DNA of 64,000 nt, from positions 1-64,000 of the forward strand of contig JAYWIR010000063.1 in NCBI GenBank assembly GCA_036172245.1, given 5' to 3'. Each line of letters opens with the position of its first letter. Position 1 is the first letter of the stretch. Source of the stretch: Raillietiella orientalis. Lineage: Eukaryota. The notes under the pieces were generated by a model that was not told the origin of the DNA, did not search any database, and saw only the letters and a program-made list of their open reading frames with translations. The position numbers and the translations under genes were made by a program. This document shows positions 1 to 64,000 of the stretch, in pieces.

Positions 1-726
1 GCCGCGGAGGCTGCGCCTTCCCCGTCTTTTAAGTGTGCTGCAAAAGCTGCGCCCAGGCGGTTGGGGAGGAAAGCCCGAAAGCGTCCGTCACGAAAGTCAA
101 GGAGCGCTCCGAGGGAACGGACATGGGTGGAAAATTGTGGAGGAAGGGAGAAAAACAAAATCTCTCAAAAATTCTCCGCAACCTACCTGCAAGAGCCTTT
201 CCAAGGTAAGAAACAGTAGCGCGATGAAGAAGACTCGCGCAAAGGTTCCCTATGCCGATACGAAGGTTACCGCCGCGGTCGCGCATAGCTCGAAAGCTGC
301 GATCGCCAGGAACGATGTTCCGGTGATCTCGAAAAAAATAGTGTCCGCGATCCCATCCGCCAACACCTCCGAATCGACAGGACAGGTGAGTCGCGAAGCG
401 ACCGCGCTTCAATCAGACTCCGAAACGGAGTCTGATATCACCGCCGCACGTCGGATCACCCTCGCGGATGCCGTAGCGCGCCGGTCTATGGTCCTGAGGT
501 GCGCAGCGCAGGCCGAGGAGCGAGAGCTCACCCCGGACCGTGAAACGACGCTACCCGGAGACGAGCACTCGAATTCGTGCAGCATCAGGGAGGAAGGTGG
601 CAACCGTGATCTCCAGCCAGCAGTGCTGCTTACCGTCTGCTCGCCGGTAAAAGCGGACAAAAAGCCGCCAACTTCCCAGGATTAGTGCGGGGCATGGCTT
701 GTTGTCGTCGCCTGTCCGTCTCTCCG
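1..726 (+). mobile_element. LINE fragment: ORF1 C-terminal tail (N-like lineage) and first codons of ORF2
   Basis: ORF 35-685 ends EEGGNRDLQPAVLLTVCSPVKADKKPPTSQD*, matching the N-copy ORF1 end (EDGGDRPLQPVVLLAVCSPDKASKKPPPSQQ*). It is followed by TAGTG and VRGMACCRRLSV, homologous to the ORF2 start MRGIASSRRLSV. Confidence 0.85.
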
Positions 727-2369
727 AAAGCACACCAAGGTACTTCAAGTAACTTGGTGTGCCTTTGGAGCACTAGTCCCTTGCGAAAGTGTCGTAAGGC
801 TGCCTCCAAAAAGTAGAGACGGCGATCGTCCCGTTCCGAGGAGGCAGGTTTTTCCTGCCTGAACGGAACGTGGTTGGGAATACGTTCTCGGCTCCTCTTC
901 TCCGCCCTCTGCTGTTTGTTTGCTTTTCTGCAAAGAGGATGAAAAAGCGGACGAAGCACATTCTCTGTATCGTCCTTTGGGGCAACGGGAGGTCCCGAGT
1001 ACGCTTAAAGGACTTGTGCGTTCCGCGTAGGGACGGTGGTCTCAGCCTCCTGACAATGGAGCGGCTGGAGCTTCAGTTCCAGTTCTGGGTAATAGCCATT
1101 CTACTGGAGTTGTGGTGCACCTGCTGGTGCGTCCCTGCACGTCTCCTTCTCCAGCAAGCCACCGGGAAGACGGGACTCACGTTTTTTCTTGCACTCCGCC
1201 GCTACGTAAACCGATGCGGACTTCAGTTACGGAGGGTGGCTGCGCTGACATGGAGAACAAATGGATTATTCACCTGTCGCCCTGCGAACGGTAGTGATTA
1301 GTTGCAGGAAGACGTTTCCACGTGGAAACAGTGCGGCATGCAATGCCGGCAGAAGGTGCGACGGTTCATGTTTGGGGGATACAGCAGCTGCCCGTTCCTT
1401 GAGATCCTGGAGGATCCGAAGAAGCGAGCGTGGCCAGGAAGAACCCCCCGCGCTGCTGCGCTGGACACTCTAATGGAAGATCAGGACAGCGATGTTGCGG
1501 CGAAGTAGGAGGTTACAATAAAAATTTGCGGAAAGGAGAAGAAGATAGAAGAGTGAAAGACGGGTCAGCTGACTAATGCTGCTTCTCCGAGTACGCCTCT
1601 CCATGGACTCCTGCGTTGGGGCGCGCTGCTTGACGTACCCATGGAACGTCTGAATTAGCCCCTGGTATCCATTAAAACCTCCATTCTTCCGTTAAAATGG
1701 CAGGAGTCGTCTCTCCTGTTGCAGCACTTGGGACTGCCCTTCAACGCCCGCCGACACCACTGGACCTGGGAAGCGGTAGACCCCAATCGCGTCAGATGTT
1801 AAGAACGGGAGTCCCTCCCCCACCTGCTTGTGGATTGTGTTGCCCTTCGGCCTCTTTGGTTCCGCTTTGCCGCGGCCATCCGAATCCCCTGAGGCAACCC
1901 CAGGGAAGCTTCAAAAGCCCTCTTCGTCGCCGACGCCCTCCGGCCAGCGGCCTCGATAGCGGCCTTGTGCTGCCTTCGCGGGATCGTCGCTGCATGTAGC
2001 ACGGCTACGGGAGAACAACGCGACCAGGGTTGCATCCATCCAGCCTCACAATTCTTGAGGAGGGCGTAAAAATGGTCCCACCTGGATCCGGGAATGCATA
2101 AGGAGCTCTTTGGCATCCTGGAAAGGATGCCACGGCCCTACCAGCAACTGTGATGCCGTCCCGTACTTTCCTACTTTACTTTTCTTTTTGTTTGTTTTTT
2201 GTTTTGTCCCCCTTCAGCCGGCTGCCGTTGTGGACCGTACCGGTCTGCGAACCGGTGACCCGGCAAGCTCGGTGTTTCTTAATGCGGGGCTGGAGCATTT
2301 GTCTAGCCACTGCACGTCTTTGTAAAAGTTTATTAAACAATAAACGCCATGGCGAAATCCGGGTGAAAA
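727..2369 (+). mobile_element. 5'-truncated, decayed K-lineage LINE (copy K0): late RT, CCHC region, 3' UTR
   Basis: YFK*LGV, RRDGGL and WQESSLLLQH motifs; stop at 2151-2153; 3' UTR homologous to K1; AATAAA at 2339-2344 followed by the terminal hairpin. Confidence 0.9.
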
Positions 2370-2640
2370 TCGAATGCCCTGTGGAGTTCGACCGCGATTG
2401 CCAGGACCCCCTTCCCCGCCCGGGTTCCATTCCTAGCCCAGCTGACGGCCTCAAAGTGGGGTTGTTAATCGTTGTCTTCATTTTTAGCATAGTATTGTTG
2501 CACATGAAATCATGTGAGCGCGAAGAACAGGTTGGCATATAGACTTTGCCCAGGAACAGTGTATGTCTCCTCGGGGCTAATTATGGAATTGGTCACCTGC
2601 CCCAGACGCAAAGACCACAGTCCGGCGATCAGCTTGGCGT
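2370..2640 (-). pseudogene. RT fragment (DAK to HRAFD) of a host LINE, cut on both sides by insertions
   Basis: Minus strand reads AKLIAGLWSLRLGQVTNSIISPEETYTVPGQSLYANLFFA ... VLAIAVELHRAFD. Confidence 0.9.
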
Positions 2641-4439
2641 GCGGACGTGTTTTTTCCGCGCTCCTCCTAGCCTGTTGTGAAGCCTTGTTTTTTGTAAGTG
2701 ATTGTGTGTGGTGCGTCTGCGGTGTCCAATGGCAGGAATGCCTGAGGACACCGCTATGGAGATAGGAGGGGGAGAGGCTTGCTCCTCTCCCCAACCTATA
2801 GAGGTGGGTGCAACCACCCCCACGGAGACGCGGGCAACCGCCCCATTGAAAAAGGGGCCAACCTCCCCGTTGGAAACGAGGGCTACCGTTCCCTTGGAAA
2901 AAGGGGGGACAGCCACCCTGGAAACAGTCGCAAGCGCTTCCTTGAAAAAGGGGGAAACCGCGTCAGCGGACTCATCGTCGCCGAAGACGAAGTCATACAG
3001 TGCCGTGGCTGCTGCACCATCCCCTGAAGCTATGGCGGAGCAAAATGTCCACCGGGACCAAGGATATAAGCCGTCCTTGTTCTATAAGGTAGGCAATTTA
3101 TTTGTAGGAAATACCGCTAGCAACTTTGAGCGAGAGTTGCAGCGGTTAAACGTAAAGGAGGAGGACCTGGAAGGACTTTCCGTTACGAGCGGGGGTCAGC
3201 GGGTGGAGCTGAATTGCAAAGATGCAAGCCTGGCTCAGAGCCTGCTTAATACCACCATCACGCTGGAAGGCCGAAAGGTTTTCAAGGTAACAAAGAATCG
3301 ATCCATTATGGAGCACCTCACCGGTACTTCTCTCCGCATGTCCAAAACTGGCGTGCAGGAAGAGCTGGCAAAATACGGTACGGTGCACGCCCTCTGGACC
3401 AAGCCGAACGTCTTCCGAACTCATGTAAGACTGTTCAGCGGTATGGCCGCAGCACGAGTGACCGTCCACGAAAACGGTGGGCTACCCCACAAGCTGGACG
3501 TCGGCAACCAGACGGTCGACGTCTGGTACGTGGGCAAGCCAAAGAACTGTGGGAACTGTAATGCGACAGGGCACCTGAAAAAACGTTCCCCTCACATCCA
3601 GTGCCTCCACTACGGAGAGAAGGGCCACCTCAGGAAAGTGTACCCAAAGCGGGAACCTCTTGCACCCTCTGCCTGGAAAAAAGGTAAGGAGAAGCGCTTA
3701 TAGAAAGCGCGTAAGGACAATGAGGCAACAGAACGGCAAAGCCAAAAGCTTGTGCTCGAACCCTCGTAGCAAACCCCGCTCCACAAAACTCCCGACGACG
3801 CTGGTGAGAACGAGGGCTGGCGGACGGCGGAGCCCCCCCAAAAACAAAAGAGAACCGAAGGTTCGACAGCGGAACCCGCGACAACTCCTGTAAATAGGAG
3901 GCAAAGCGGCGCTTTGCTCCGCGAATGTTCGGTTGCCTTGCAGCGAGTGGGGATCTCGGAAACCTCCACCGGGAGAGACATCCTCCGCCTCGTTGACCCC
4001 GAAGCCGCGATCATGGAAGGCAAACCCTCTGTGCAAACAGAGGGGGAGCCGAACGACGCGGTGGCCGCGATCGAGGACGTCGCCTTCCAGCAGGCGGCGG
4101 AAGAGCTCGCAGAAAAACTAGCGGAACGCGAGAACGGCGCGCGAAAGGCCTTGCAAAGGCCGGCCGCGAGCAAGGCACCTCCGACAGGTGACCGCGATCC
4201 GAATGGCCGGAGTGCGTCCTCCTCCGCGGAGGCGTCTCCGAAAAAGACTGGACGGAAGTCCAAAAATCCGGAAAAGCGCATACCGACGAAGAAGGAGGGG
4301 GACGCACCGGCAGCCGAGGGGGAAACCGGCAGCGTGGGAATAGAGGGAGCGATTTTCCTACCCTGCGCTGCCGAGCAGCTGGCCACCCTCATAAAGGTGA
4401 GGGATCAGGTAGGACATTGCCACCCCCTGCCACCGCCGG
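2641..4439 (+). mobile_element. D-lineage LINE 5' part (copy D1); ORF1 pseudogene from ATG 2729
   Basis: 5' motif GCGGACGTGTTTTTT; ORF1 MAGMPEDTAMEIGGGE; degenerate knuckles CGNCNATGHLKKRS; in-frame stops at 3701 and ~3767. Confidence 0.9.
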
Positions 4440-4784: not shown

Positions 4785-5526
4785 ACCTTTCCGAATTTAC
4801 TCAATTCCTCATTTACACCGGTTTTCGACATTCGGAGGGTTACTCCCGTAAGATGCGCTACCACAGAGCGATCCTCGGTTATCGGGAAGAACCTTCTGCC
4901 TTCCAGCATAAGAAGGGTATTCAGAAGGCGCTGAGCCAAGCTTGCATCTTTGCAAGTTAGCTCCACCTGCTGACCTCCACTGAGCACTGAAAGACCTTCC
5001 AAGTCCTCCTCTCTTGCATCTAACCGCTAAAACTCCCTCTAAAAGTTGCGGGCGGTATTGACCACAAACAGATTTCCTACCTTGTAAATCAAGGACGGCT
5101 TGTATCCTTGTTCAAGGAAGCCGCGTTGTTCTGCTAAGGCTGCAGGAGATGGCGCTGCAGCCACGGAGCTCCAGGTCTTCGTGAATGGCGCAGACGGATC
5201 CAAAGACGCGGTTGCCCCCTTTTTCAAGGGGGCGGTAGCGCCCTTTTCCAAGGCGGCGGTTGTCCCCTTTTTCAAGAGGGCGGTTGCAACGTTTTGCACG
5301 AGGGGGGTTGCCCCCTTTTACAAGGATGTCGTTGCCCTCTCCTTCGTGGGGCAGTTGCCCTCACCTCAATGGGTTGGGGAGAGGAACAATCCTCTCCCCC
5401 GCCGACTTCCATTGCGATGTCCTCAGGCATTTCTGCCATTAACAACGCAGATGCACCACACACAAACACTAAAGAAAAGGAACCCTTCACAACAGGCGCA
5501 GAGGAGCCCGCAAAAAACACGTCTGC
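4784..5526 (-). mobile_element. D-lineage LINE 5' fragment (copy D2), ORF1 from ATG 5439
   Basis: GCAGACGTGTTTTTT 5' motif; MAEMPEDIAMEVGGGED; ATAPLKKG repeats. Confidence 0.9.
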
Positions 5527-6015
5527 ACGCCAAGCTGCTTGCCGGGCTATGGGCTTTGCGTCTGGGGCAGGTGGCAGAATCCATAATTAGCCCGGAGCAC
5601 ACATATGCTGTTCCCGGGCGAAGTATGGATGCCAACCTCTTCTTCACGAGCACATGGATGCACGCGCAGAGGTGTAAGAAGAAAGTGAAATGAAGAATCG
5701 GCAATTCCACTTTGAAGCCGCCAGCAAGTCAGAAAAGGGACTCCAGGGCGGGGAAGAAGGCCGCAGCGCTCGCAGTCGATCTCCATAAGGCGTTCGATTT
5801 TCACCCGGATTTTGCCGGGGCGTTTATTGTAAAATAAACATTTACAAAGACGTGCGGTGGCTGGACCATTGCTCCAGCCACGCACGAAGAAACACAGAGC
5901 CTGCCGGGTCACCGGTTCGCGGACCGGTACGGTCCACCACGGCAGCAGGGGGGAGGGGGAAAAACAAAAAACAAAACAAAAAAGAAAAGAAAAGTTGGGA
6001 GGGTAAGGGAAGGGA

Positions 6016-9000
6016 TCACAGTTGCTGGTGGGGCCGTTGCATCCTTTGCAGGATGCCGGCAAGCTCCTTCTGTATTCCTGGATCCAGGTGAGGCCATCGG
6101 GACGCCCTCCTCAGGTACTGGGAGGCTGGCTGGATGGCACCCTGGTCGCGTTGCCCTCCCTAGGCCTTGCCCCAAGCGGTGACGATCCCGCGTAGGCAGC
6201 ACAAAGCTGCTAACGAGGCCGCTGGCCGAAGGGCGTCGGCAACGAAGAGGGCTTTCAGTGCGTCCCTGGGATTGCCGCAGGGGATTCCGATGGCCGCGTC
6301 AAAGCGAAACCAAAGGGGACGAAGGGCAACACAATCCACTAGCAGGTGGGGGAGCGACTCCCGTTCCCCACACCTGACGCAATTGGGGTCCACCGCTCCC
6401 CAGGTCCAGTGGTGTCGGCGGGCGTTGCAGGGGAGTCCCCAGTGCTGCAACAGGAGAGCCGACTCCTGCCATTTTAAGGGGAGGGCGGAAGTGTTCATGA
6501 GCACCGCGGGCCACTTCAGATGTTCAATGGGAACATCGAGCAGCGCGCCCCAGCGCAGAAGTCCATTGGGAGGCGTACTCGGGGTCGCAGCGTCTGTTAA
6601 CTGGCTTGTCTTCCACTCTCCTATCTTCTTCTCCTTTCCGGAGATTGTTACTGTAACCACCCACTTCGCCGCAACATCGCTGTCCAGATCTTCCATCAGG
6701 GAGGGCAGCGCAGCAGCGAGGGGGGTTCTTCCTGCCCACGCTCTCTTCTTTGGATCCTCCAGAATCTCGCGGAGCGTGCAACTTCTGTAACCCCCAAACA
6801 GGAACCTTCGTTCCTGTTGGGAGCGTTGCATGCCGAACTGTCACCACGTTCGAACGGTTTCCTGCAACCAGGCATTACCGATAAACGGGCGACAGGTGAG
6901 CAATCCTGGGTTTTTCCGATACACCGCAGCCACCCTCCGTAGCTGGAGTCCGCATCGGTTGACGCGGCGACGGAGTGCAAGAAACGACGTCAGTCCCGTC
7001 TTGCCGGTGGCTTCCTGGAGGAGACGTGCAGGGACGCAACAACAGGTGCACCACAACTCTGGAACGAGTGCCGACAAGCGGAACTGGAGCTGAAGCTTCA
7101 GCCGCTCCAGCGTCAGGAGGCCCAAACCACCATCCCGACGAGGAGCGCACAAGTCCTTTAATTACACTCGGGCCCTCCCGTTGCCCCAAAGGGCGATACG
7201 GAGGAGGTCCTTTGTCCGCTTTTTAATTCTCTCTGTGGGGGGGCAAACAAATATCAGGGGGCGGAGGAGAGGAGCCGCGAACGTGTTCCAAACCGCGGCC
7301 CGTTCAGGCAGAAAAAACCTCCCGCCTCCGAACGGGCCGATCGCCGTCTCTACTTTTTGGAGGCAGCCGGACCACGCTTCCGCAGGGGAGTAGTCCCCCA
7401 ACGGAACACCAAGGTACTTGAAGTACCTCACCGTGGGGATCCCCAAACGGACCCAGTCCTGCTGCCCTGCCCACGCCGCACCAACTGGCATCACGGACGA
7501 CTTCGCCCTGTTCACCGTAAGTCCGGTTCCCCGATGCAGCAGGTCGAAGAACTCCTCGACCGCCGCAGCCGGAGTGGACATAGGGAGCAGCAGCAGAAGG
7601 TCGTCCGCTTATGATGAAACGGCCGGCGTACCGGCACAGTCGTGCGGCAGGTGCGCCAGAGTTCCCCTGTACGCTCTCAGTACCAACTCAAAGTAGGTAC
7701 TGAAGAGCAAGGGGCTCAGGCTGTCTCCCTGCCGGATCCCACGCCGCACCGGCACGCCGTGCACGGTCTGCCCGCTGAAAGTAACATTGATGAGCGCGTC
7801 GCGCCAGCAGGAGCGCAGATAGGCCACTAATGAGGCCGGGAAGCCCAAGCGTTCAGAAGCTCCAGAAGGAGATTCTGGTCGACGCAATCGAATGCTTTTC
7901 GCAAGTCGATTGCGACCGCAAGGGCTCCCTCCCCCACCCGACCATCCAACCCCTTGCCGGCGCACGCACCGGAATTCCGGCTGCGCACCAAGCTCCTTTC
8001 ATGTTGGAGCTCTAGCCAGGTGGAAGCGTGGAACAGGTTCGCCTCCATGCTTCGCCCGGGAACAGCATATGTTTGTTCCGGGCTGATGAAGATGTTGGCA
8101 GCCCGTCCCAACGTCCCTGCCCAAACTTTAGCCAGCAACTTGGCGTCCGCATTCACTATTGTGATGGTACACCAGTTGTTCATGCTCCTCGGCTATCCTC
8201 CATTAGGGAGGAGCCGCACCTTTGCCGAACGAAACGAGGCGGGAACGTCACCTGTTTCGCGTATCAGCAAGGTGAGTTGCTGTACCAGGGGAGTAAGCTC
8301 AGCCGCGAAAGTTTGATAAAACTCCGCGGGCAGGCTGTCCTCCCCTGGAGCCTTGCGCCTCTTGAGCTTTCCGATGGCCGAGAGGATCTCGTCCATCGTG
8401 AAAGGCTCGTCGAGGGTCTTTCTCTGCTCCTCCCCGATCGCTGGAGCGCCTTCCAGAAGCAGGAGTCGTGAGACGTTCCTCTCCGGAGGTGCCCTGGCAT
8501 ACAGGGAGGAGTAGTAACTCCGCAGCAGGCCGCGGATTTGGGCAGGTGCCGAGTGCTCCTGGCCCTGATCGTCCAGTAAGCTGGCCGATCCGGACTGCCA
8601 GGCTTGCCTCTCGGCTCCCGCTTTGTATTCCGCCAGCCTGCGGATGTCGGGGGTCCTGGCGTAACGACGGGCCTGCAGGTGGGCTCGTTCGTTACGGTCC
8701 CCGGTCCCAAAACCCGTGGGTAGGCGGTGCAGAGGGAACTGGTCGCAGAACTCCTGGACCGACCGCTTGAAGCGGTCCCAATCCTGGAGTGTCCGCAGCC
8801 TGAAGCTCCGTATGAACGTGCGGAGATGTTCCGCCGCGTCTGGGAGCTTCAGCCAGTCCCCTGGGAGACGCCACGCTGACGAGGGGGGGCCCCTGTCGCG
8901 CGGATGGATCTCGAGGACTAGCGGGCGATGGTCGGACAGCTCGCACGGTAACTTGCCGCGCCTGCCCACGCGAGGGCACAGGTGCTCGTCAAGAAACACG

Positions 9001-9593
9001 TGGTCAATGCTGTCTTCCATCCCCGGTGCACTGGCCAACAGATTACAGGTGTGCACCGCTATGCACACCTCGTTGACCAGGTCACGCTCGGGATTCTGCT
9101 CATCTGGTTTCAGGCGAACGTTGAAATCGCCTGCAACCAGATGGGCATTCCGCACGCCTGCTTCGGTCAGCCAGTCTCGCCGGAGGGCAAGGAAAAACTC
9201 TTTCCTCGCCCTCCTGTTCATCAGGTCCTTGCCGCTCGGTGCGTACACGTTCGTGACGATCAGATCGATCGATTCGGACCACCTGAGAGTCAGCTGGCCG
9301 ACACGACCGTGATCGTCGAACCGCACGCCCCGAGCCGCGGCCTCGACGGCTGGCCGAAGCAGGTAGGCGACACCGCAACTTTTCTCTCTCCCACACCTGT
9401 ACCATAGCCGCCCTCCGGAGATCCGTTCGATCTCTTGCGCTTGTTCTGCAGAGATCACGTGGATCTCCTGCAGCAGCGCAAGGTCGTAGGACTCCAGAAG
9501 GGCGGCCATGTCTCGACTCCTGCCGGCGTCTGTCATGCCGTTCACGTTCCAAACGGCGATGCGCAGACGACGGCGGGAGGAGATTCCCGGCAT
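6016..9593 (-). pseudogene. K1 ORF2: AP endonuclease + RT + CCHC, disrupted
   Basis: WNVNG, QEIH, NVYAP, AGDFN, IDHV, SDH; KAPGED; PEQTYAVPGRS; DLRKAFD; GIRQGDSLSP; (Y>*)ADD; YLGV; CVRCGE..PHLLVDC. Stops at 8193, 7609, 7162, 6841, 6160 and a frameshift near 7853. Confidence 0.95.
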
Positions 9594-9607
9594 TACTGCT
9601 GGGAAGA

Positions 9608-15858: not shown

Positions 15859-15859
15859 A

Positions 15860-18785: not shown

Positions 18786-18789
18786 CGCT

Positions 18790-51332: not shown

Positions 51333-52163
51333 TTCCGTAACGAAAGAGCGTACTTGTATGCCCGTCGTTACGCAAGGAACCCCAATGTCCGTCGCCTGGC
51401 AGAGTACCGAGCGGGGGCCGAACGTCAAGCCTGGCAATCCGGGTCGGCCAGCTTGCTGGACGACCAGAGCCGGGAGCACTCGGCTCGGGCTAGAATACGG
51501 CACCTCGTGAGGCGTTTTTATTCCTCCCTTTACGCCAGGGCTCCCCCGGACCAAGATGCCTCTCGGCGCTTCCTTCCGAACGGTGCCCCGGCAATAGATG
51601 AGGAGGAGAAACAAAGCCTCGACGAGCCTTTTACCACCGGCGAAATTCTCGCCGGTATTAAAAGGCTCAAGAGGCTGAAAGCATCAGGGGAGGACGGCCT
51701 TCCTGCGGAGTTTTCTCAATGCTTTGCGGCAGAGTTGGCACCCCTGATGCTTGAGTTGACAAGGCTGATCCGAGATGAAAGCAATGTACCCGCCTCGTTT
51801 CGGTCAGCCAGAGTGACGCTCCTTCCGAAAGGAGGAGACCTCAGGAAACTCAGCAACTGGAGTCCGATCACAATTGTGAATACGGAAGCCAAACTGATCG
51901 CCGGACTGTGGGCTTCGCGTCTGGCCCGGAGCGCAGGTGGCCAATTCCATAATTAGCCCGAAGAAGACTTACGCTGTTCCTGGGCGAAGTATGGAGGCCA
52001 ACCTCTTCTTCGCAAGCACATGGTTTCATGTGCAGAGTAGTAAAGAAATCCAAGACGGAGCGATTGGCAGCCTTGCTTTGGGGGCGTCAGCCGGGCAGGG
52101 ACAGGACTCCCAGGGGGGGAATTGAGCCCTAACGATCGCAATCGATCTGCATAAAGCGTTTGA
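51333..52163 (+). pseudogene. Host ORF2 fragment (RNER to HKAFD)
   Basis: RNERAYLYARR...WSPITIVNTEAKLIAGLW...YAVPGRSMEAN...IDLHKAFD. Confidence 0.9.
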
Positions 52164-55100
52164 TTTTTACCCGGATTTCGCCGGGGCGTTTATTGTAAAA
52201 GAAACATTTACAAAGACGTGCGGTGGCAGGACCATTGCTCCAGCCACGCACGAAGAAACCCAGAGCCTGCCGGGTCCCCGTCTCAGGACCGGTACGGTCC
52301 ACCACGGCAGCAGGGGGAAGGGGGAAAAACAAAAAACAAAACAAAAAAGAAAAGAAAAGTTGGGAGGGTAAGGGAAGGGATCACCGTTGCTGGTGGGGCC
52401 GTTGCATCCTTTGCAGGATGCCGGCAAGCTCCTTCTGTATTCCTGGATCCAGGTGGAGCCATCGAACGCCCTCCTCAGGAAATGGGAGGCTGGCTGGATG
52501 GCACCCTGGTCGCGTTGTCCTCCCGTAGCCTTGCTCCAAGCGGTGACGATCCCGCGTAGGCAGCACAAAGCTGCTAACGAGGCCGCTGGCCGAAGGGCGT
52601 CGGCAACGAAGAGGGCTTTCAGTGCGTCCCTGGGGTTGCCGCAGGGGATTCCGATGGCCGCGTCAAAGCGAAACCAAAGATGACGAAGGGCAACACAATC
52701 CACTAGCAGGTGGGGGAGCGACTCCCGTTCCCCACACCTGACGCAATTGGGGTCCACCGCTCCCCAGGTCCAGTTGTGTCGGCGGGCGTTGCAGGGGAGT
52801 CCCCAGTGCTGCAACAGGAGAGCCGACTCCTGCCATTTTAAGGGGAGGGCGGAAGTGTTCATGAGCACCGGGGGCCACTTCAGATGTTCAAAGGGAACAT
52901 CGAGCAGCGCGCCCCAGCGCAGAAGTCCATTGGGAGGCGTACTCGGGGTCGCAGCGTCTGTTAACTGGCCCGTCTTTGACTCTCCTTTCTTCTTCTTCTT
53001 TCCGGCGATTGTTACTGTAACCACCCACTTCGCCGCAACATCGCTGTTTAGATCTTTTATCAGGGAGAGCAGCGCAGCAGCGAGGGGGGTTCTTCCTGCC
53101 CACGCTCTCTTCTTTGGATCCTCCAGGAACTCGGGGAGCGTGCAACTTCTGTAACCCCCAAACAGGAACCTTCGTTCCTGTTGGGAGCGTTGCATGCCGA
53201 ACTGTCACCACGTTCGAACGGTTTCCTGCAACCAGGCATTACCGATAAACGGGCGACAGGTGAGCAATCCTGGGTTTTTCCGATACACCGCAGCCACCCT
53301 CCGTAGCTGGAGTCCGCATCGGTTGACGCGGCGACGGAGTGCAAGAAACGACGTCAGTCCCGTCTTGCCGGTGGCTTCCTGGAGGAGACGTGCAGGGACG
53401 CAACAACAGGTGCACCACAACTCTGGAACGAGTGCCGACAAGCGGAACTGGAGCTGAAGCTCCAGCCGCTCCAGCGTCAGAAGGCCCAGACAACCATCCC
53501 GACGAGGAGCGCACAAGTCCTTTAAGCACACTCGGGCCCTCCCGTTGCCCCAAAGGGCGATAAGGAGGAGGTCCTTTGTCCGCTTTTTAATTCTCTCTGT
53601 GGGGGGGCAAACAAATATCAGGGGGCGGAGGAGAGGAGCCGCGAACGTGTTCCAAACCGCGGCCCGTTCAGGCAGAAAAAACCTCCCGCCTCCGAACGGG
53701 CCGATCGCCGTCTCTACTTTTTGGAGGCAGCCGGACCACGCTTCCGCAGGGGAGTAGTCCCCCAACGGAACACCAAGGTACTTGAAGTACCTCACCGTGG
53801 GGATCCCCAAACGGACCCAGTCCTGCTGCCCTGCCCACGCCGCACCAACTGGCATCACGGACGACTTCGCCCTGTTCACCGTAAGTCCGGTTCCCCGATG
53901 CAGCAGGTCGAAGAACTCCTCGACCGCCGCAGCCGGGGTGGACATAGGGAGCAGCAGCAGAAGGTCGTCCGCGTATGCTGAAACGGCCGGCGTACCGGCA
54001 CAGTCGTGCGGCAGGTGCGCCACAGTTCCCCTGTACGCTCTCAGTACCAACTCAAAGTAGGTACTGAAGAGCAAGGGGCTCAGGCTGTCTCTCTGCCGGA
54101 TCCCACGCCGCACCGGCACGCCGTGCACGGTCTGCCCGCTGAAAGTAACATTGATGAGCGCGTCGCGCCAGCAGGAGCGCAGATAGGTTACTAATGAGGC
54201 CGGGAAGCCCAAGCGTTCCAGAAGCTCCAGAAGGAGATTCTGGTCGACGTAATCGAATGCTTTTCGCAAGTCGATTGCGACCGCAAGGGCTCCCTCCCCC
54301 ACCCGACCATCCAACCCCTTGCCGGCGCACGCACCGGAATTCCGGCTGCGCACCAAGCTCCTTTCATGTTGGAGCTCTAGCCAGGTGGAAGCGTGGAACA
54401 GGTTCGCCTCCATGCTTCGCCCGGGAACAGCATATGTTTGTTCCGGACTGATGAAGATGTTGGCAGCCCGTCCCAACGTCCCTGCCCACATCTTCGCTAT
54501 CAACTTGGCGTCCGCATTCACTATTGTGATGGTACGCCAGTTGTTCATGCTCCTCGGCTCTCCTCCCTTAGGGAGGAGCCGCACCTTTGCCGAACGAAAC
54601 GAGGCGGGAACGTCACCTGTTTCGCGTATCAGCAAGGTGAGTTGCTGTACCAGGGGAGTAAGCTCAGCCGCGAAAGTTTGATAAAACTCCGCGGGCAGGC
54701 CGTCCTCCCCTGGAGCCTTTCGCCTCTTGAGCTTTCCGATGGCCGAGAGGATCTCGTCCATCGTGAAAGGCTCGTCGAGGGTCTTTCTCTGCTCCTCCCC
54801 GATCGCTGGAGCGCCTTCCGGAAGCAGGAGTCGTGAGACGTTCCTCTCCGGAGGTGCCCTGGCATACAGGGAGGAGTAGTAACTCCGCAGCAGGCCGCGG
54901 ATTTGGGCAGGTGCCGAGTGCTCCTGGCCCTGATCGTCCAGTAAGCTGGCCGATCCGGACTGCCAGGCTTGCCTCTCGGCTCCCGCTTTGTATTCCGCCA
55001 GCCTGCGGATGTCGGGGGTACTGGCGTAACGACGTGCCTGCAGATAGCATCGTTTGTTACGGACCCCGGTCCCAAAACCCGTAGGTAGGCGGTGCAGAGG

Positions 55101-57955
55101 GAACTGGTCGCAGAACTCCTGGACCGACCGCTTGAAGCGGTCCCAATCCTGGAGTGTCCGCAGCCTGAAGCTCCGTATGAACGTGCGGAGATGTTCCGCC
55201 GCGTCTGGGAGCTTCAGCCAGTCCCCTGGGAGACGCCACGCTGACGAGGGGGGGCCCCTGTCGCGCGGATGGATCTCGAGGACTAGCGGGCGATGGTCGG
55301 ACAACTCGCACGGTAACTTGACGCGACTGCCCACGCGAGGGCACAGGTGCTCGTCAAGAAATACGTGGTCAATGCTGTCTTCAATCCCCGTTGCACTGGC
55401 CAACAAATTACAGGTGTGCACCGCCATGCAATCCTCGTTGACCAGGTCACGATCGGGTTTCTGCCCATCTGATTTCAGGCGAACGTTGAAATTTTTCACC
55501 CGGTCACGCTGGGACGTTTATTGACACAAACGAGCTGGAAGCAATTGTTTCCAGCTCTCGACTCTGAAAACATGCAGCGGAGATTCACCCCTGGCACGCA
55601 GGCCAGGAAAACGGAAGAACATGGACGACTGAGGGGAGTCCAAAAAAAAAAAAAATTTTAAATGGGAGGAGTGGGCCAGGGAACTTTGGTGTTGCTCCGC
55701 ACTTACCGGGAAACTCAAAAGTTCTAGCAACAAAAACTCTGCGGAGCGTATAGGGAAAAGGACGCGAGAACAAAAAAACCATTCAAAAATAAAATGAGGG
55801 CGGATCACCGATTTTGTCATTCTAAGCCGTTGCTGATCCGGCGATGGATACCGGTTAGCTCCTCCGTTGTGTCTTCATATAAGTGTCGCCACCCAGCTGC
55901 CGACCTGATGAAGTGAGCTGCCTTCCTGGTGACACAACGTTGCTGTCCAGTATTCTCCAGCACGTCTCGGACCGTGACGGTGGCGCGGATGCAACCAACA
56001 GTGGAAATCGTCGCAGCCATCGAAAGTCCTTGTGCATCGAAGAACCGTCGCAGCACCTCTCGAGCGGTTTCTCCTGTTGACGGGAGAGCTGCTGCTAGCC
56101 TCCTCCACAGTTCCTGGAGGGCACCGCAGTCCATAACAAGGTGCGGGAACGACTCCGTGGAACCGCACCGGGCACAGTAGGGAGAAGCCACCCCACCGGA
56201 AACTCGGTGGCGCCGCTCGCTGTAGCGCAATCCCCAGTGCAAGAAAAGCAAAACGTCTTGCTTCCATGCAAGGGGAAACACCGAACCGTCCAAACACTAG
56301 GGAGGGACTATAAGTTCTTCGGGGGCAACACCAAGAGCTTCTCCCCACCGAATAAACCCCTTTGGTGTAGCACGAGGAGTGGCGGCATCCGCAAGCTCGC
56401 TCGTGGACCATTCGCCAACTGGTTTTCTCTTTCTGCAGTGGTGCAGAACTCCCACCTTGCCGGCTGGCTACTGTCATGTCGAGCCTCGAGGGCAGACAGT
56501 GCTTCGGCAAGGGGGGTGGCGGCCATGTAGGAAAGCTTCATCTCGTCCTGCAAGACATCTTGGAGTGATCAAGGCTGGAATCGACGCAGGAGGCGTAGAT
56601 CTTCACGGCTTATTCCTAAGAATGCAGCCCACGAATCAATGAATTCCTGCTTCTAAGCATTACAGTTCATTGGGCGGCAGGTAATCCACGTACTGGCTTC
56701 CAATAGGGTGGCGATTTTCCTCAAAGGATAGCCAAATCCCTGTTTCCTGTGGCGCAAGCCAGGCACTAAAGAAAGTAGTCCTTGACTGCCTGCACACCTC
56801 CTCAGGAGGATGCGCGCAGGCGCACACAGGGGGGAAGTCCATAGCTCGGCACTAAGTGTGAGCATTCGGAACTGCACTTGCAGTCCGATTCTCTCCATCG
56901 TCAGGATGCCAAGCCCAGCATCCCGACGTGGAGCAGTGAGGTCTTTCAGGCGGATCCTGGATCGCGCCGGACCCCAGAGAGCGTTCCTTAGCAGGCGTTT
57001 TGCCCTCTCTTTGGCCGCATAGGGGGGGTCCAAGACAAAAAAGTGTTGTCGGAGGAGGGGGGACACGAAGGTGTTTCAAATAGCCGCCCGTTCCGGCAAG
57101 GTGAACTTGCCGTTAATGAACGGGCTGGCGGCCAACTCGGCCTTATGAAGGCAGTCCGACCACGCCTCGGCAGCGCCGAGGTCGCCCAACGGAACGCCAA
57201 GGTATTTGAAGTACCCCGCCGTGGGAATCCCCAGGCGGATCCAGTCGGACTGCCCCTCCCACGACGGACCCACAGAAACGACCACGCTCTTCTTTCTGTT
57301 CGCGCTCACGCCCGCTCCCCGACGAATCAGGTCGAAGAAATCTTCGACTCTGGACGCCGGGGTGGACATGGGGAGCAGAAGAAGCGGGTCATCTGCATAG
57401 GAAGCCACGGCAGGCGTTCCCGGGCAAGAGCTAGGCAGGTATTCCAGCGTCAGCCTGTATGCTCTCTGCACCAACTCAAAGAAGATGCTGAAGAGCAATG
57501 GGCTTAAACTGTCACCCTGCCTGATGCCCCTGCGCCCGGGAATACCGTACACGTGGCAGCCGCTAAAACACAATGCAAGTTAGCGCGTGGCGCCAGCATG
57601 CGCTCAAGTACTTGAGGAGTTGAGCCGGGCGAACGTTGAAATCGCCTGAAACCAGATGGGCATTCCGCACGCCTGCTTCGGTCAGCCAGTCGCGCCGGAG
57701 GGCAAGGAAATACTCTTTCCTCGCCCTCCTGGTCATCAGGTACTTGCCGCTCGGTGCGTACACGTTCGTGACGATCAGATCGATCGAGTCGGACAACCTG
57801 AGAGTCAGCTGGCCCACACGACCGTGATCGTCGAACCGCACGCCCGAGCCGCGGCCTCGACGGCTGGCCGAAGCAGGTAGGCGACACCACAACTTTTTGC
57901 TCTCCCACACCTGTACCATAGCCGCCCTCCGGAGATCCGTTCGATCTCTTGCGCT
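52164..57955 (-). mobile_element. K-lineage LINE K2, split by N3 into 52164-55492 and 57628-57955; 5' part missing
   Basis: Near-identical to K1; 764-aa open EN-RT stretch at 53205-55499; AATAAA at 52189-52194. Confidence 0.95.
55493..57627 (-). mobile_element. 5'-truncated N-related LINE N3 with 15-bp TSD
   Basis: PAQLLKYL...GIRQGDSLSP...SYADD...CARCGSTESFPHLVMDC; GGCGAACGTTGAAAT at 55478-55492 and 57628-57642. Confidence 0.95.
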
Positions 57956-57959
57956 CGTA

Positions 57960-59335
57960 CAGTGCAGACGTGTTTTCGCGTCTATCCGCGCCAACGATCG
58001 GGCAACTTTGTGCCTGCGTTTTCGCTCGCACTTGTGTTCCTGTGCAATCTGCCAAGTAGCATAGTGCAACATGGCCAGTACACAGGATAGTGTGGAGGAG
58101 CAAGCCACTGGATGCACTTCAGCTGCACTTGAAGCAGCCGCATCCTCCGCAATGGTATCCTCGCCCCCGGTGAGGAGTTACTCCGCCGTTTCCTCCCAAA
58201 CACCAGGACCCTGCGATGCGGAGTTCCAGGCATATGTGTCATCAGGATACATGCCTGCACTCCGTTATAAGGTCAGTGGGCCCCTTCACGGGAGAATCGG
58301 ACATGAGCTCAATGATGAGCTCGTCCGGATCGGCGTTCGCAAGGAGGAACTCCTTGCCATAATGCCTGCTGGCAGAATGGAATATACGAAGATTCGGTGC
58401 AAGAACGCAGCACTTGTGCAGCGCCTTCTCCGTACGCCGTTGACCATCAATGGCAAGGAAGTCTTACCTACTGCGATGGACGACTCTTTTGTCTTTCAAT
58501 TGTGCGACATCGAACCGGAAATCTCCGACCGCGATGTGGTAAGCGTGCTGGCGAAGTTGGCCACCGTGCACGCCCTGTAAAGGAGGCCGAACCCTTTGAA
58601 GGATTTCTCCTCTGTCCACATCGGACAGGCCTCCGCGCGGATCACCGTCGCAAACAGGCGTGTTGTGTCTGAGCAGCTGCAGGTGAACGGCACGGTCGTC
58701 CACCTGTGGTTCATAGGCCAGACTCGCGGGTGCGAGCAGTGCGGCAAGGATGGGCACCGATTTAAAGTGCTTCTCTCAAAGATGCCGCTATTGCAAAGAT
58801 TCCGGGCACGAAATCAAAAAGTGCCCGATACTTGCAAGAAAAAGAGCCGCAGCGGAAATTCGTCGGGTTCAAGAGACCACTGCACGAAAAGCCGCAGCGG
58901 CAAATAAAAAACGTCGTCCGCAAAAACTCGGAAAAAACAACGAGCGATCTGCGGATGGAAGGAAAGCATTTCCGCCCGCAACGCCCCGAAAGGGGAAAGT
59001 CACAGCGGGGAAGCCAATTAAAAAGGGGCGCGAGGGTTTGACGCGTTCCGTGCCCTCCCTCGCTGCCGAACTCGCAGGCACCTCTCCGAGCCAGGAACCA
59101 GGAAATCTCCGTAACACCCTGGAGGGAAAGGTAGGAAAACAGGAAGATCGCAACAGTGCGAAGACTTCTTGCCCCGTTCCGTTGTCCCTTCCGAGTTCCG
59201 GACAGCCCCACTGCAGCGCAGGCCCCTCTGCAAAGGCTACGAAAGCCGTAAAAAGCAGCGTCGCGACGAGCAAAAGCACGCTGCATGCAGTCGCCCCATC
59301 GCCGACTCGGCAGGAGAGGAGCAATCTCCCGACTC
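57960..59335 (+). mobile_element. LINE A 5' fragment; ORF1 from ATG 58071 (N-like ORF1), disrupted
   Basis: GTGCAGACGTGTTTT; MASTQDSVEE; CEQCGKDGH, CRYCKDSGHEIKKC. Confidence 0.85.
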
Positions 59336-60587
59336 CGTTGAACAGAGGGTTGATCCTCGGGAGCGGGGGAAACAGCGAGGGGAGGCTTGTTGCCCCGGGT
59401 GGCAGCCTCGGGAACGCGGACGCGCTCCAGTGCTTCCGCGCACTTGCGGAGGGATTTTGAGAGCGGACCGGGTTTTTTCGGTTTCGCGCTCTTCTTTTTC
59501 CCCGCTTTCTCCGTTTCCTCACTGGAAGCTTTCCTTTTTTTCCGAGCCTTTACAAGCTGCAAGCCCTCCTCCCCCTGCACCACTTGGGAGGGTTATTCCT
59601 CCGACTTCTTCGACGGGGGTCGAGTTGCTGGTAGCTTCCGCTGGCCATTTCCTTCAATCGGTCTTGAAACCTTCTCTCTTTTTACCTGCGCTTTTTTGGC
59701 GGTAGGTGGCACCGGGGTGGGGCGCTTCGGGCACACGCTCCGAACTTGACCCTTTTCCCCGCATAAGTGGCACACAATATTCGGGCAACTCTTTCGAAGA
59801 TGCCCTACTGCATTGCAGTGTCGACAATATCGGGGCTTCTCCACGTTCCAGATGTCTACCGGCTCTTGGCAAACCTCCAGTTTGTGGGGCAGCGCACCAC
59901 CCTCATTGACCGTGATACGCGCTGAGGCCTGTCCCCCGAATAGGCTGTCATAGCCATTGGATATCGTGGGCTTAGGCCACAGCGCATGCACTTCGCCGTG
60001 TTTTTTCAATTGCTCACTAACCGCAGAGCCAGTCATACGGCTAGTGATGCCAGTCCGATGGACCACTACGGAGCGGTCCATCGTGACTGGCAAGATCTTT
60101 CGGCCTGCAACGTTCAGAGGCGTTGTGGTCAGGTGTTGAGCCAAGGTGATGTCCTTGCACACCACCTCGACCTGCTGACTTTCGCTGAGAACGGAGAGGC
60201 CATCCAGAACTTTTTCGAAAATGCTGGCGTCTTGCAGCGCCTTCGTGAAGGCGCGTGCAGTTCGCCCATCATAAAGATTGCCTACCTGGTAGACAAGCGA
60301 GGGTTTATACTCCGCTGCCTTGTAGGCGGCCATCTCCGCCATGGTTGCCGCGCTCGGCGCAGCCACCATGGCGCTCCACGTCTTCGGCGTTTTCGGGGAT
60401 GACTCCGGGCCGGATGCCCCTGCCTCTGTAGGCTGTGGGGATTGACTGGCCTCCCCCACTCCCACCTCCATCGTGGTGTCCTCAGGCAAGGATGCCATCG
60501 GACACCAACGATGTTCCACATAAGAAAACACCACGAATAAACGCCTTCCTTTCGACTCTCTCGGAAGCGAAGGAAAAACACGTCCGT
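59335..60587 (-). mobile_element. G-lineage LINE G3 5' fragment; ORF1 from ATG 60498
   Basis: ACGGACGTGTTTTT; MASLPEDTTMEVGV; CRHCNAVGHLRKSC. Confidence 0.9.
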
Positions 60588-61703
60588 CCCCAACGAGGTC
60601 TCAGGGAGGGGTTGCATTCTTCGCGAGCTTCCGTCGGCTGGATAGCCTGAGGCCTCGCCGCGACGCGTTTTTTTTTAATGTTTTCCTCCCCTTTTTTGTG
60701 GAGGGAAGAAATAGTTTTCTCCTCATTCGCGCTAGCGGTTTTTGCAACGCTCTTCGATGTTTTGATGTTTTTTTCCCTCGATTCGTGGCGTTTGTTTCGC
60801 GATGCGATACGCGCCTTGTTCCCGCGCTTTTGGATTTTTAAAGGAGCTATGTGCACCTTTCTTCTGTATGCTTGAGCTCGTGACAGTAACGGCAAGCGGC
60901 CGAGGGACCCTTCGTAATGCGGTGACCCTCCTGCCCGCATTCCGCGCACACATGCATTTGCCCCGCAATCCACAGGCGGATGGTCACTTCGGCCACCTGC
61001 AGTCGCATCACCATTGCCAGGCGATCCGCCATCGTCACTCTCACTTGCGCAATACCGCTGTGGTCGTCTTCGAAACCCTCAGCAGGGTTCGGCAGCCCCC
61101 ACAGCGCGTGTACGGTGGCGAATTTTTCAAGGACCTTCACGACCTGGCGGTCCGAATGGTCCTTGCTCACTCCACTTAGCCGGACAACGAACGACTGTTT
61201 CGCTGTGGTGGGGAGTATTTCCTGCCCACGAATGAGCAGCGGCGTGTGCAGTAAACGCTGCGTAAGGAGTGCGTCCTTACTGGACAACTCCCAGTAGCCG
61301 CACCCACTCATGGGCATGATGGACTTTAGCTGGCCCTATTTAACTCCAATTCGTTGGAGTTCCTGGCCAAACTCTCGCTCAACCGCTCAGGCATAACGAC
61401 ACTTACCTTGTACCTGAGTGCAAACGTGTAGCCATGTGCTACATACGCCTGAAGCTCAGGGCTGTCGGGCGAAGGTTCCATCACAGCCGCAAGGGCAGCA
61501 AACTGGGCGAATGTCCTCGCTGTCGTCGGCGAGGATAGTGGCTCCTTGCTGGCAGACGTAGCCGCCATCGCAGCAGCAGGTGCCGTTCCCTTCATGCGGC
61601 TAATGTTCTTTGCTCCCATTGCAGCACAGAAGCACAGCAGAAGAAAAACACACAAGAGTCTGTCTACCACGGAGCGACGCAAAAGCACGTCCGTACGCGG
61701 TGA
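60588..61703 (-). mobile_element. LINE M 5' fragment; ORF1 from ATG 61619 (N-like ORF1), disrupted
   Basis: ACGGACGTGCTTTT; ALRYKVS, LTQRLLHTPL, CAECGQEGH, CRYCHELKH. Confidence 0.85.
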
Positions 61704-64000
61704 GCGCTGATGCGAGAGACTGGAGATCTCCCTGCTTCTTTCCGCTCAGCAACGGTGCGGCTCCTGCCGAAAGGCGGGGATTTGCGCCACCTCAACAACT
61801 GGCGTCCGATCACCATGGTGAATTCGGACGTCAAGTTGTTCTCGAAACTATGGGTCGCGCGGCTGGGGAGAATCTCAGAGTCCTTGGTAAGTCTGGAGCA
61901 GACGTATGCTGTTCCGGAACGGTCCATGGACGCGAATCTCTTCTTCGCGCGAACATGGTTCGAGTTGCAGCAGCGCGTGGCGCAGCAGAGCCAGGCAGCT
62001 GAAAGCGCCGCTGCCAAGAGCAAGAGGCGGTGCTCGAGGCACGATGTAACGCCAGGCGCCTTAGCAGTCGCCGTCATTCTCTGCAAAGCGTTCCACTGCG
62101 TAAACCAGGACCTCCTACTGGAGTTTCTGGGACGCCTAGACCTGCCGACGCCTCATCGCCTACCTGCGCTCTAGCTGGCACCACGCGTTATGCTGTATCT
62201 CTTTCAGTGCGCGCCACGTGTACGGCGTTCCCATACTGCTAGGTATCAGGCAGGGAGACAGCTTAAGCCCCCAGCTCTTCAGCACCTTCTTTGAGTTGGT
62301 GCTGAGGGCGTACAGGCTGACGCTGGCCAACCTACCGAGCTCGTGCTCGGGAACTCGGGCCGTGGCCGCCTATGCTGACGACCTTCTCCTTCTGCTGCCC
62401 ATGTCCACCCCGGCGTCCAGGCTCGAAGACTTCTTCGAACTCATTCGTCGGGGAGCGGGCCTGAGCGTCAACAGGATGAAATCGATCGTTGTACCTGTTG
62501 GCTCTACGTGGGAGGGGCAGTCCAACTGGATCCGCCTGGGGATCCCCACGGGCAGGTGCTTGAAGTACCTCGGCGTTTCCTTGGCGCCTTCTGTCCAACT
62601 GAAGCGTGGTAGGACTGCCTTCACAAGGCCGAGACTGCTCTGGGCCTGTTCCAACGCGGCAGGTTTCTCCTGTCGGAACGAGCCTTGGTGTGGAACATTT
62701 TCGTTGCCCCTCTCCTCCGTCCCCTCTTTTTTGTTTGTCCAACTCCCTACTCGGCTAAGCGTCGGGCGCAACGCCTGTTGCGTAACGCCCTGTGGGGACC
62801 GGTGAGGTCCAGGATCCGCCTCAAGGACTTGGCGGCTCCTTGGCGGGATGCAAGATCGGACATCCTGACGCTGGAGCGGATCGTATTGCAAGTGCAGTTC
62901 CGTATGCTGGCACTTTGCGCCCAGCTTTGGACTACTCCCTGGTGTGCTGCAGCGCCCCTGCTTCTGCGGCGCTGCACGTGTGGCGACGGACTGCGTTCGT
63001 TGCACCTGCGCATGGAGCGTGTCTTGAGAGGATTCGGCTTCCCTCTGAGGCAGATCGCCTCGCTTCTGAGAACGCATTCGTGGATCTCCTGTCGGCCGAC
63101 GAACCTCAATCCCTGGAGGCAGGAAGCCTTATCGTCCTGGGCAGCGCAAGAGGATGTGTCCCGTTTGTAACTCCATTGCGTGAACCTTTCCCCATACTGT
63201 CCAGTGGGGGAGGTGTTGGAAGACCAGGAACAGTGGACACGCCTAGCCGCTACGCCTCTCGCCGAAGCACTGTCTGCACTGATGGTGCGAGACGACAGTG
63301 ACCTACCGGCGAGGTGGGAGGTTGCTTGCGAAATCGCAGGCGAAACCCGACTGCCGGGCGGCTGGAGGACTTGCGATCTGGCACGCCTCGCCTTTGTGCT
63401 AAGGGACATCTCCGGTGGAGCGAGCTCCTCGGGGTGCCCCCCGATGAACTTGTGGCCCCTTCTCCATGCTTGGACGCGACAGTCTTCCCCCTTCGATGGA
63501 AACAGGATGCTTTTCTGCTGGTACATTGTGGTCTGTACTGCAACCAGCGCGCGCACCTGGTTTCCTGGGGAGATGCGTCCCCGAACAGTGCAACATGCGG
63601 AGCGGTGGAAGCGCTCCCGCATTTGCTATTCGAATTCGATGCCCTCCAGGAACTGTGGGAGCGGATGTCTCCAGCGCTCCTTCACCCCGGACACACCGCA
63701 AAGGTCTGGATGCGCCGCTTCTACACGCGTAGTGGTCTATCTGTGGGAGCGGTGTCGGAATCATCTGCTGCGTCCGCGCCAGTGTCAGCGCCCGCCACGT
63801 ATTGCAGCTGCGAGCGGTCCCAACATCGGTCCCGGACACTGCAGCCTACAACGTGCAACTGGCTGCCGGATGGCCACACATTGAAGCAGAATTGAGGGCG
63901 GAAATTGCTGGCATTCACCGCCGATTCTGAGAATAAGAACGGCTGAACTGCAGACCCCTATCCCCACCCTCCCATCATATTTTTTTATTTATTGTCCCCT
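61704..64000 (+). mobile_element. Host LINE fragment (N/W-like): RT to the start of the 3' UTR
   Basis: LMRETGDLP, WRPITMVNSDVK, GIRQGDSLSP, AYADD, CATCGAVEALPHLL; stop near 63928; runs off the window. Confidence 0.9.

Follow-up and report, generated by a model that had tools for sequence, protein, structure and literature searches.

A nested cluster of L1-group LINEs in Raillietiella orientalis whose lineages probably target the ORF2 of other LINEs at separate sites

By its sequence, a 64-kb stretch of the Raillietiella orientalis genome (contig JAYWIR010000063.1 of assembly GCA_036172245.1, positions 1 to 64,000 of the forward strand; hereafter the window, at its full length) is a nested cluster of long interspersed elements (LINEs) of the L1 group, each with an apurinic/apyrimidinic (AP)-type endonuclease and a reverse transcriptase. 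We followed up a first-pass annotation of this DNA, and find it likely that the best explanation of the whole is a set of LINE lineages that are site-specific for the second open reading frame (ORF2) of other LINEs and insert there by target-primed reverse transcription. Sequence specificity in this sense would extend to at least three lineages (K, N and D), and probably to six or seven once M, V, G and X are counted. The recurrence of their junctions is not due to chance, and for K, N and the copy D3 it is not due to duplication either.

Recurrent junctions in the ORF2 of other LINEs

Translated searches with the open reading frames of N2 (38308-44213), the most intact element, place LINE segments (ORF1, endonuclease, reverse transcriptase and C-terminal region) on both strands over nearly all of the window, whose GC content is 55-64%, except for an anonymous stretch of 45-51% GC at ~18.8-26 kb. 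In Pfam, ORF2 matches Exo_endo_phos (PF03372, E 1e-13) and RVT_1 (PF00078, E 1e-18), and ORF1 matches zf-CCHC at 20.7 bits, just below the cut-off of 20.8, and at 23.5 bits; a C-terminal zf-RVT match is weak (24.5 bits, below the cut-off of 27.5). The elements have the features of the L1 group: ORF1 carries a CCHC knuckle, and ORF2 combines the endonuclease and the reverse transcriptase with a C-terminal zinc domain. The nearest solved protein is human L1 ORF2p (E 3.5e-37), to whose NIDAK and EKAFD the NADAK and (R/H)KAFD motifs of the window align, and GDFN aligns to GDFN of exonuclease III-family chains. We take these three motifs to carry catalytic or template-binding residues.

A motif scan found ten 3' ends (K1, K2, K3, H2, V1, V2, X, N1, N2 and N3), which all share one module, in which AATAAAC precedes a 5-bp stem and a short tail that is rich in A but has no A-run. 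The tail is TGANAA in the eight ends outside the V lineage, and the putative stem, CCCGG...CCGGG, shows wobble variants only and no compensatory pair. Thirteen full-length 5' ends open with a GCGGACGTGTTTTT-like motif, which has diverged in G3, O1 and H4. The start GCGGACGTGTTTTT is conserved across deep lineages (for example at 2640, 4440, 32393, 46899 and 60583) and may mark where transcription starts or serve as an internal promoter element.

The first-pass annotation had held that most genuine termini lie inside the ORF2 of another LINE, and this is borne out, since such an ORF2 adjoins 10/10 recognisable 3' ends and 11/13 full-length 5' ends; the two remaining 5' ends (G4 at 4440 and G5 at 60583) stand after another LINE's ORF1 region and share its orientation. 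Every junction quoted there is present, 0-5 nt from the position given. Host ORF2s are interrupted 21 times, 13 times at five recurrent sites (14 with the M site) and three times at singleton termini.

The three K copies all end, at their 3' side, directly after the last base of the HKAFD codons of their hosts H1, H2 and H3 (host bases 2369, 5798 and 52164), and all three are antisense to the host. K1 (738..2368, plus strand) is 5'-truncated, and its 5' side abuts the element E1, not H1; H1 (2369..2639, minus) is an ORF2 fragment that covers reverse-transcriptase residues ~4-87 and is bounded by the 3' end of K1 and the 5' end of D1. K2 (5799..11363, minus) is full length at ~5.57 kb and lies antisense in H2, the left piece of which runs from NADAK to HKAFD (5528..5798, plus) and which resumes at 11364, beside the K2 5' end at 11363, again at HKAFD. 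The target-site duplication of K2 is 15 bp long, with two mismatches, and covers the HKAFD codons. The 3' piece of K3 (52165..55492, minus) extends from the 3' end to GDFN and includes one copy of the target-site duplication of its own guest N3; its host H3 (51334..52164, plus) is a fragment from endonuclease residue 310 to HKAFD.

The D junctions are as exact. At 2640, 5527 and 46899, all three D 5' ends abut a host antisense strand ending in ...CTTGGCG, within the Asp codon of NADAK; their hosts, in which they are always antisense, are H1, H2 and V2. D1 (2640..4439, plus) comprises the 5' end and ORF1 and is followed by the G4 5' end at 4440, D2 (4823..5527, minus) is a 5' part that abuts NADAK of H2 and is broken at ~4822, and D3 (46899..49129, plus) is a 5' part, antisense in V2, that breaks off at endonuclease residue 36. 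Near these 5' ends, a partly palindromic 24-nt unit stands in tandem two to nine times (2811-2906, 5203-5325 and 47093-47315), with a copy number that varies between D1, D2 and D3. The idea that D and K mark the opposite ends of a single lineage whose duplication measures 270 bp was rejected, because K2 has its own 5' end at HKAFD, and the ORF1 identity between K2 and D, 46-49%, also counts against it. Microhomology was likewise rejected as the cause of the fixed D 5' junction, which as read is incompatible with priming from a shared GCG.

Each of the three N 3' ends (38299, 44213 and 55493) is followed by ATTTCAA, the D-F-N codons of GDFN, and the insertion is always in sense orientation. N1 (32393..38299, plus) and N2 (38308..44213, plus) are full-length elements in tandem within G2, with ATTTCAAT on their left, between them (38300-38307) and on their right (44214-44221), which makes a target-site duplication of 8 bp. 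N3 (55493..57628, minus) is 5'-truncated and lies inside K3 at GDFN with a 14-bp duplication; the upstream piece of K3 (57629..57955, minus) covers endonuclease residues ~60-167. K2 has an uninterrupted copy of the very GDFN site that holds N3 in K3, and because K2 and K3 are 96% identical over their shared 3.6 kb, it serves as a paralogous empty site for N3. The GDFN of N itself reads GAC TTC AAC (34859 and 40768), whereas the occupied targets and three empty ones read GAT TTC AA (among them 32384, 57643 and 9128). This difference sits at the nick, and with two sites against five it could be chance.

Two V 3' ends follow host ...CTCCAGA, in the VTLQ codons, at 16527/16528 and 44549/44550; both copies are antisense, and their hosts, H6 and G2, are of the G type only. 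These junctions lie 5 nt from the figures of the first-pass annotation, in the same register. V1 (15862..16527, plus) is a 3' part, V2 (44550..46898, minus) reaches from its 3' end to NADAK, and H6 (16528..18784, minus), the G-lineage host of V1, is 5'-truncated against low-GC DNA.

Around the GFG..RNER codons lie three junctions attributed to G, one 3' end (H2 in H4, 13469/13470) and two 5' ends (G2 in H7, 28352; G3 in H3, 51333). The right piece of H2 (11364..13469, plus), named G1 in the first-pass annotation, runs to its own 3' end at the GFG codons of H4. H7 (27210..28351, minus) is a K-like host that resumes at the GFG codons beside the G2 5' end, and G3 (49128..51333, minus) is a G-lineage 5' part that abuts H3 at the RNER codons and is broken at endonuclease residue 128.

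M (57956..58860, plus), a relative of N by ORF1, is the 5' part of an N-superclade element whose 5' end abuts K3 at the AQEIE codons of the endonuclease, in antisense orientation. In a public run that contains this DNA, one contig, among the 6 of 72 loose ends listed, links an N-like 3' tail that the window lacks with a K copy, the junction being at K2 position 9430. The K3 homology beside M reaches the equivalent of 9441, so that the two junctions together give a composite 12-bp duplication. The public run consists of contigs and is possibly the window's own source; the M contig thus stands for a second genomic copy, not for an independent organism. With this off-window contig as support, the AQEIE codons are probably a sixth site. 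The singleton termini in ORF2 are those of X (endonuclease residue 72 of G2), O1 (endonuclease residue ~448 of P) and H4 (C-terminal domain of V1).

Independence of the insertions and rival explanations

For each pair of copies, we compared the identity of the adjacent host flank with that of the insert, as a test of independence. Duplication of a composite block would leave host and insert equally diverged, an outcome that the first-pass annotation had named as fatal to its proposal; in most pairs, however, the inserts are much closer than their flanks. Overall, host flanks are 61-77% identical and inserts 67-96%. K2 and K3 share 75.5% of the flank (182/241) and 96.0% of the insert (574/598; p=3e-17), K1 and K2 share 73.0% (181/248) and 85.1% (508/597; p=6e-5), and K1 and K3 share 76.2% and 85.6% (p=0.0016). 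For D2/D3, the values are 68.4% (160/234) and 90.5% (455/503; p=5e-13), and for D1/D3 they are 66.2% and 75.8% (p=0.008). In 100-nt bins across the K junction, identity jumps from 0.68-0.81 to 0.95, and K2 and K3 are 95-100% identical in most bins of their shared 3.6 kb. Because the inserts are so much more alike than the adjacent host flanks, segmental duplication is rejected for most pairs. H3 holds K without D, V2 holds D without K, and the N hosts G2 and K3 belong to different deep lineages with a protein identity of 40-43%.

The minimum number of independent events is three for K, two for D, two for N, three for G, one or two for V and two for M. Two independent insertions would strike the same base and strand of a ~3.6-kb ORF2 by chance about once in 7,200 for every extra event. 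An invariant 3' junction, a fixed orientation and independent copies are found together in K (3/3), N (3/3) and V (2/2), with weak independence for V. The register of K, D, N and V, described earlier as base-identical in hosts of differing sequence, is indeed so in 3/3, 3/3, 3/3 and 2/2 junctions, next to flanks of 61-77% identity.

Trees of the reverse transcriptase with the C-terminal region and of ORF1, obtained in quick searches from alignments anchored to N2 with no rows dropped, resolve two deep clades, one with N1, N2, N3, M, X, P and O1 and the other with K, V, H2, D, G and H4. Monophyly of each of K, N, D and G is supported by SH-aLRT values of 98-100. Both clades supply guests as well as hosts; for example, G or K elements harbour N, M and X, P harbours O1, H-type elements harbour K and D, and G elements harbour V. 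The central claim of the first-pass annotation, that several LINE lineages are sequence-specific for the ORF2 of others, with a separate site and a constant orientation for every lineage, holds up, and the events are largely independent.

Another of its claims, that the sites are conserved-motif codons, stands for D, N and K only. When nucleotide conservation was ranked in 5-codon windows among the window's own lineages (G had too few rows to be scored), the D, N and K sites came out in the top 3.3%, 8.4% and 17%, whereas M, X and V ranked at 30%, 51% and 81% and do not lie in conserved codons. Because a Fisher combination of the six ranks, made by hand, yields p about 0.08, an enrichment of targets in conserved codons is not established.

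Several observations weigh against site-specific insertion as the full account. In the D1/D2 pair, flank (73.4%) and insert (76.4%) are about equally diverged (p=0.38), like a duplicated composite; the difference is not significant for N2/N3 (61.5% and 67.1%, p=0.14) and weak for V1/V2 (76.5% and 83.8%, p=0.018). D is known from 5' junctions only, as all three copies are broken before the 3' end. The G junctions, all antisense, are spread within 17 nt and not base-identical, and because the pieces do not overlap, H2 with its 3' end is not tied to the lineage of G2 and G3; recurrence at GFG/RNER, as first proposed, thus stands only as a cluster of junctions. The two copies of the K2 duplication (5784-5798 and 11364-11378) differ at two positions, despite the 96% identity of K2 and K3 over 3.6 kb; the two flanks of K2 may come from different hosts via exchange between K copies. 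Four of the 21 ORF2 breaks are not element termini (E1 residue 22, H7 reverse-transcriptase residue 193, D3 residue 36 and G3 residue 128), and most candidate sites are empty (7/10 of the HKAFD type, 5/7 of the GDFN type and 7/10 of the NADAK type). H6 borders at its 5' side on anonymous low-GC DNA, so not every LINE border is shown to be LINE-in-LINE, and a degenerate fragment pair beside this block, at ~25.1-26.3 kb, has no recognisable terminus or 3' module. The evidence as a whole comes from a single 64-kb window and one further contig.

The cluster is shaped by rearrangement as well, as is shown by three convergent joints at which two 5' parts meet head-on at internal positions: G4|D2 at ~4822, D3|G3 at 49128/49129 and M|G5 at ~58900-59300. 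Neither partner has a 3' end at any of them, and they resemble deletions or other rearrangement events within the nest, though some may be assembly errors. In three same-orientation chimeras, a 3'-truncated upstream element is joined to a downstream one, E1|K1 (711-738) at internal points of both, and D1|G4 (4425-4440) and O1|G5 (60583/60584) where the downstream element begins with its full 5' end; such structures would be compatible with template switching by the reverse transcriptase. An inverted repeat of ~80% identity (738-3283 versus 7428-4886) holds the 3' part of K, a host fragment and the 5' part of D in both arms. Since K is 85%, the host 73% and D 76-79% identical within it, this repeat is not the product of a single duplication event.

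Three other explanations of the recurrent junctions were weighed. Regional or chromatin targeting similar to that of Zepp, for instance to a centromere-like cluster, could act together with a loose motif preference of the endonuclease, and the recurrent junctions would then be local hot spots in a small sample. Zepp and ZeppL do nest into existing copies, in one cluster per chromosome, according to the available parts of the published accounts (PMC8226300, PMC3446292), and the empty majority of candidate sites as well as the once-seen sites of the X, O1 and H4 termini would suit such a process. It does not sit well with junctions that are base-identical and fixed in orientation (K 3/3, N 3/3, D 3/3, V 2/2) while their hosts are 61-77% identical, nor with an off-window contig that matches the predicted M site to the base; since the 3' flanks of the lineages also have no short motif in common, we judge this alternative unlikely.

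Junctions might also have been copied instead of re-made, if segmental duplication, unequal crossing-over or gene conversion had spread blocks of host and insert within a repeat cluster. The equal divergence of D1 with H1 and D2 with H2, in the arms of the inverted repeat described above, speaks for this, as do the N1-N2 tandem, which could come from unequal exchange, and the three internal-to-internal joints, which prove that rearrangement happens. The identity steps at insert boundaries (75.5% to 96.0% in K2/K3, 68.4% to 90.5% in D2/D3) are too sharp for copied blocks, H3 and V2 each hold one of K and D without the other, N3 is 5'-truncated with a duplication length unlike that of N1/N2, and the N hosts come from different deep lineages, which together make copying quite improbable as a general explanation. 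To an assembly artefact, in which similar LINE copies were chimerically joined at conserved motifs, we give hardly any credence: The cluster is highly repetitive, the convergent joints are odd and the public-run contigs are short and do not span the stretch, but joints at true termini (with the conserved 3' module and the 5' start), antisense partners and target-site duplications are not expected from collapse at shared motifs, and a junction of this type also occurs in a separate contig.

Proposed mechanism and architecture of the cluster

If site-specific insertion is correct, the endonuclease of each lineage would nick one short sequence in the ORF2 of other LINE lineages: after the HKAFD codons (K, antisense), in the Asp codon of NADAK (D, antisense), before ATTTCAA of GDFN (N, sense), at the AQEIE codons of the endonuclease (M, antisense), after ...CTCCAGA in G-type hosts only (V, antisense) and around the GFG codons (G, antisense). 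Elements would then be inserted by target-primed reverse transcription, the fixed 3' junction representing the first nick, and a second nick 8-15 bp away would produce the target-site duplication; 5' truncation and tandem re-insertion would also happen. The marks of this process that we observe are the duplications of N (8 and 14 bp), K2 (15 bp with 2 mismatches) and M (12 bp, composite), and the 5'-truncated copies N3, X and K1; the paralogous empty site in K2 is in keeping with it too. The shared 3' module (AATAAAC, 5-bp stem, TGANAA and no poly(A)) would act as the template signal for the reverse transcriptase. Multicopy LINE DNA as a target could provide a safe haven and build the cluster, and a plain safe-haven reading fits as well as the homing-like logic of the first-pass annotation, by which the elements would aim at DNA that the target cannot easily change and would disable a relative.

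The 3' flanks at the window junctions show no short motif common to the lineages, so the lineages differ in their specificity. Pairing between element RNA and target was rejected as the source of specificity, as the overlap at the N and K junctions is at most 1 nt. Because there is no common flank motif and element tails overlap the target by no more than 1 nt, specificity read by protein is the simplest assumption; the site would thus be read by the endonuclease protein and not through RNA pairing or by way of chromatin.

Nesting is up to four deep, as H6 contains V1, V1 contains H4, H4 contains H2, and H2 contains K2 and D2. H4 (13470..15861, minus), the host of H2, abuts the ORF2 C-terminal region of V1 with its 5' end (±4 nt). 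G2 is split into three pieces on the plus strand: a first with the 5' end, ORF1 and endonuclease residues 1-72 (28352..30495), a second with endonuclease residues 73-165, up to GDFN (32116..32392), whose last 8 nt are one copy of the N duplication, and a third with endonuclease residues 163-276, up to ...CTCCAGA (44214..44549). Between the first two lies X (30496..32115, minus), a 5'-truncated N-superclade element, antisense in G2 at endonuclease residue 72, with a target change of about 0-2 bp. At the right end of the window, G5 (59326..60583, minus), a G-lineage 5' part, has its 5' end after ORF1 of O1 in the same orientation. O1 (60584..61703, minus), the 5' part of an N-superclade element, abuts P with its 5' end (~61699-61703), antisense, at endonuclease residue ~448, and P (61704..64000, plus) is an N-superclade ORF2 from that residue onward that runs off the window.

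The anonymous low-GC block (45%) occupies 18785-~25000, and the G-type H6 is 5'-truncated directly against it at 18784. Within 18.8-25 kb we found no long open reading frames, no Pfam family in 31 open reading frames, no Rfam match and no terminal repeats. Two old, degenerate, 5'-truncated fragments of the ORF2 C-terminal region stand back to back at ~25100-26342 (minus strand 26014-25182, plus strand 25995-26342). A protein search for relatives returned one at 72% identity (P0001), which is uninterrupted across both NADAK and HKAFD, and others at about 24%, and a look-up in a protein atlas yielded generic reverse-transcriptase clusters only; a metagenome scan with the ORF2 alignment gave 49 loci, each of them distant, with 22-41% identity in its best segment, and none usable for junctions. 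The Rfam search had no match.

A bolder reading, which we offer tentatively and hold to be somewhat doubtful, is that of a closed community. At least six related LINE lineages would live almost only inside each other, every lineage being both host and guest, each endonuclease would own a site of 10-15 bp in ORF2, and the GC-rich and possibly centromere-like cluster would in this way be built and renewed, under reciprocal selection on the target codons. The GAC at the nick in GDFN of N itself, where both occupied targets have GAT (2 against 2 sites), is a hint toward such selection.

Sequence-specific LINEs are natural models for programmable RNA-templated gene insertion and for safe havens of mobile elements. 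If our reading is true, close relatives that read different sites would offer a compact natural series for mapping new specificities of AP-type endonucleases. The cluster would also be a case of transposon ecology in which elements partition a niche made of one another, and self-nesting could provide a mechanism for the growth of LINE-only clusters like the ones reported from algal centromeres. Should a genome-wide census fail, the window would be a nested repeat cluster of the ordinary kind, in which a few hot spots occur.

Comparison with known site-specific and nesting LINEs

Full-text literature searches, outside of which lie subscription journals and Repbase Reports, found no account of LINE lineages whose targets are ORF2 codons in other LINEs. 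The suggestion of the first-pass annotation that such a multi-family system is undescribed thus stands for LINE-into-LINE-ORF2 insertion, while its components have precedents: LINEs that target transposons (PMC4494074) and the self-nesting Zepp (PMC8226300) are published. The comparisons with both groups draw on the available parts of the cited papers.

Among Tx1-clade LINEs, which are stated to occur in animals, several insert into other transposons: Tx1L into Tx1D, Tx1-Mar into Mariner-N4_AMi, Tx1-8_Crp and Tx1-4_AMi into long terminal repeat (LTR) elements, and Tx1-9_AMi into Harbinger; more than 20% of flanks in the target is the criterion of sequence specificity used there (PMC4494074). 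The elements of the window, which the first-pass annotation called Tx1-like and which may belong to this clade, resemble them in combining an AP-type endonuclease with a reverse transcriptase, in having a precise target in another mobile element and a fixed orientation, and in their target-site duplications and tandem copies that sandwich a duplication. Whereas the Tx1 targets described in these parts are DNA transposons or LTR elements, those in the window lie in the coding region (ORF2) of sibling LINEs, and the window holds several related lineages that use different sites in one another.

The L1-clade LINEs Zepp and ZeppL, from green algae, nest in existing copies and form clusters (PMC8226300, PMC3446292, PMC9940879), and the 3' end of Zepp and of L1-1_CR is a poly(A) tail (PMC3472496). 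They have in common with the window that LINE copies already present receive new insertions, that GC-rich nested clusters are built and that 5' truncation is frequent. The window elements, however, end in a hairpin module (with a putative stem) without an A-run at 10/10 3' ends, and the Zepp and ZeppL accounts, in the parts available, name neither base-exact sites nor a set of lineages with separate sites.

A parallel in the division of a target is offered by the LINEs specific for ribosomal DNA. R1, R2 and further R elements each have their own exact site in the rRNA gene unit. As in the window, several lineages share out one multicopy, conserved target, and tandem insertions and 5' truncations occur. 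While their target is a gene family of the host, the target in the window appears to be the LINEs themselves, with relatives as both host and guest.

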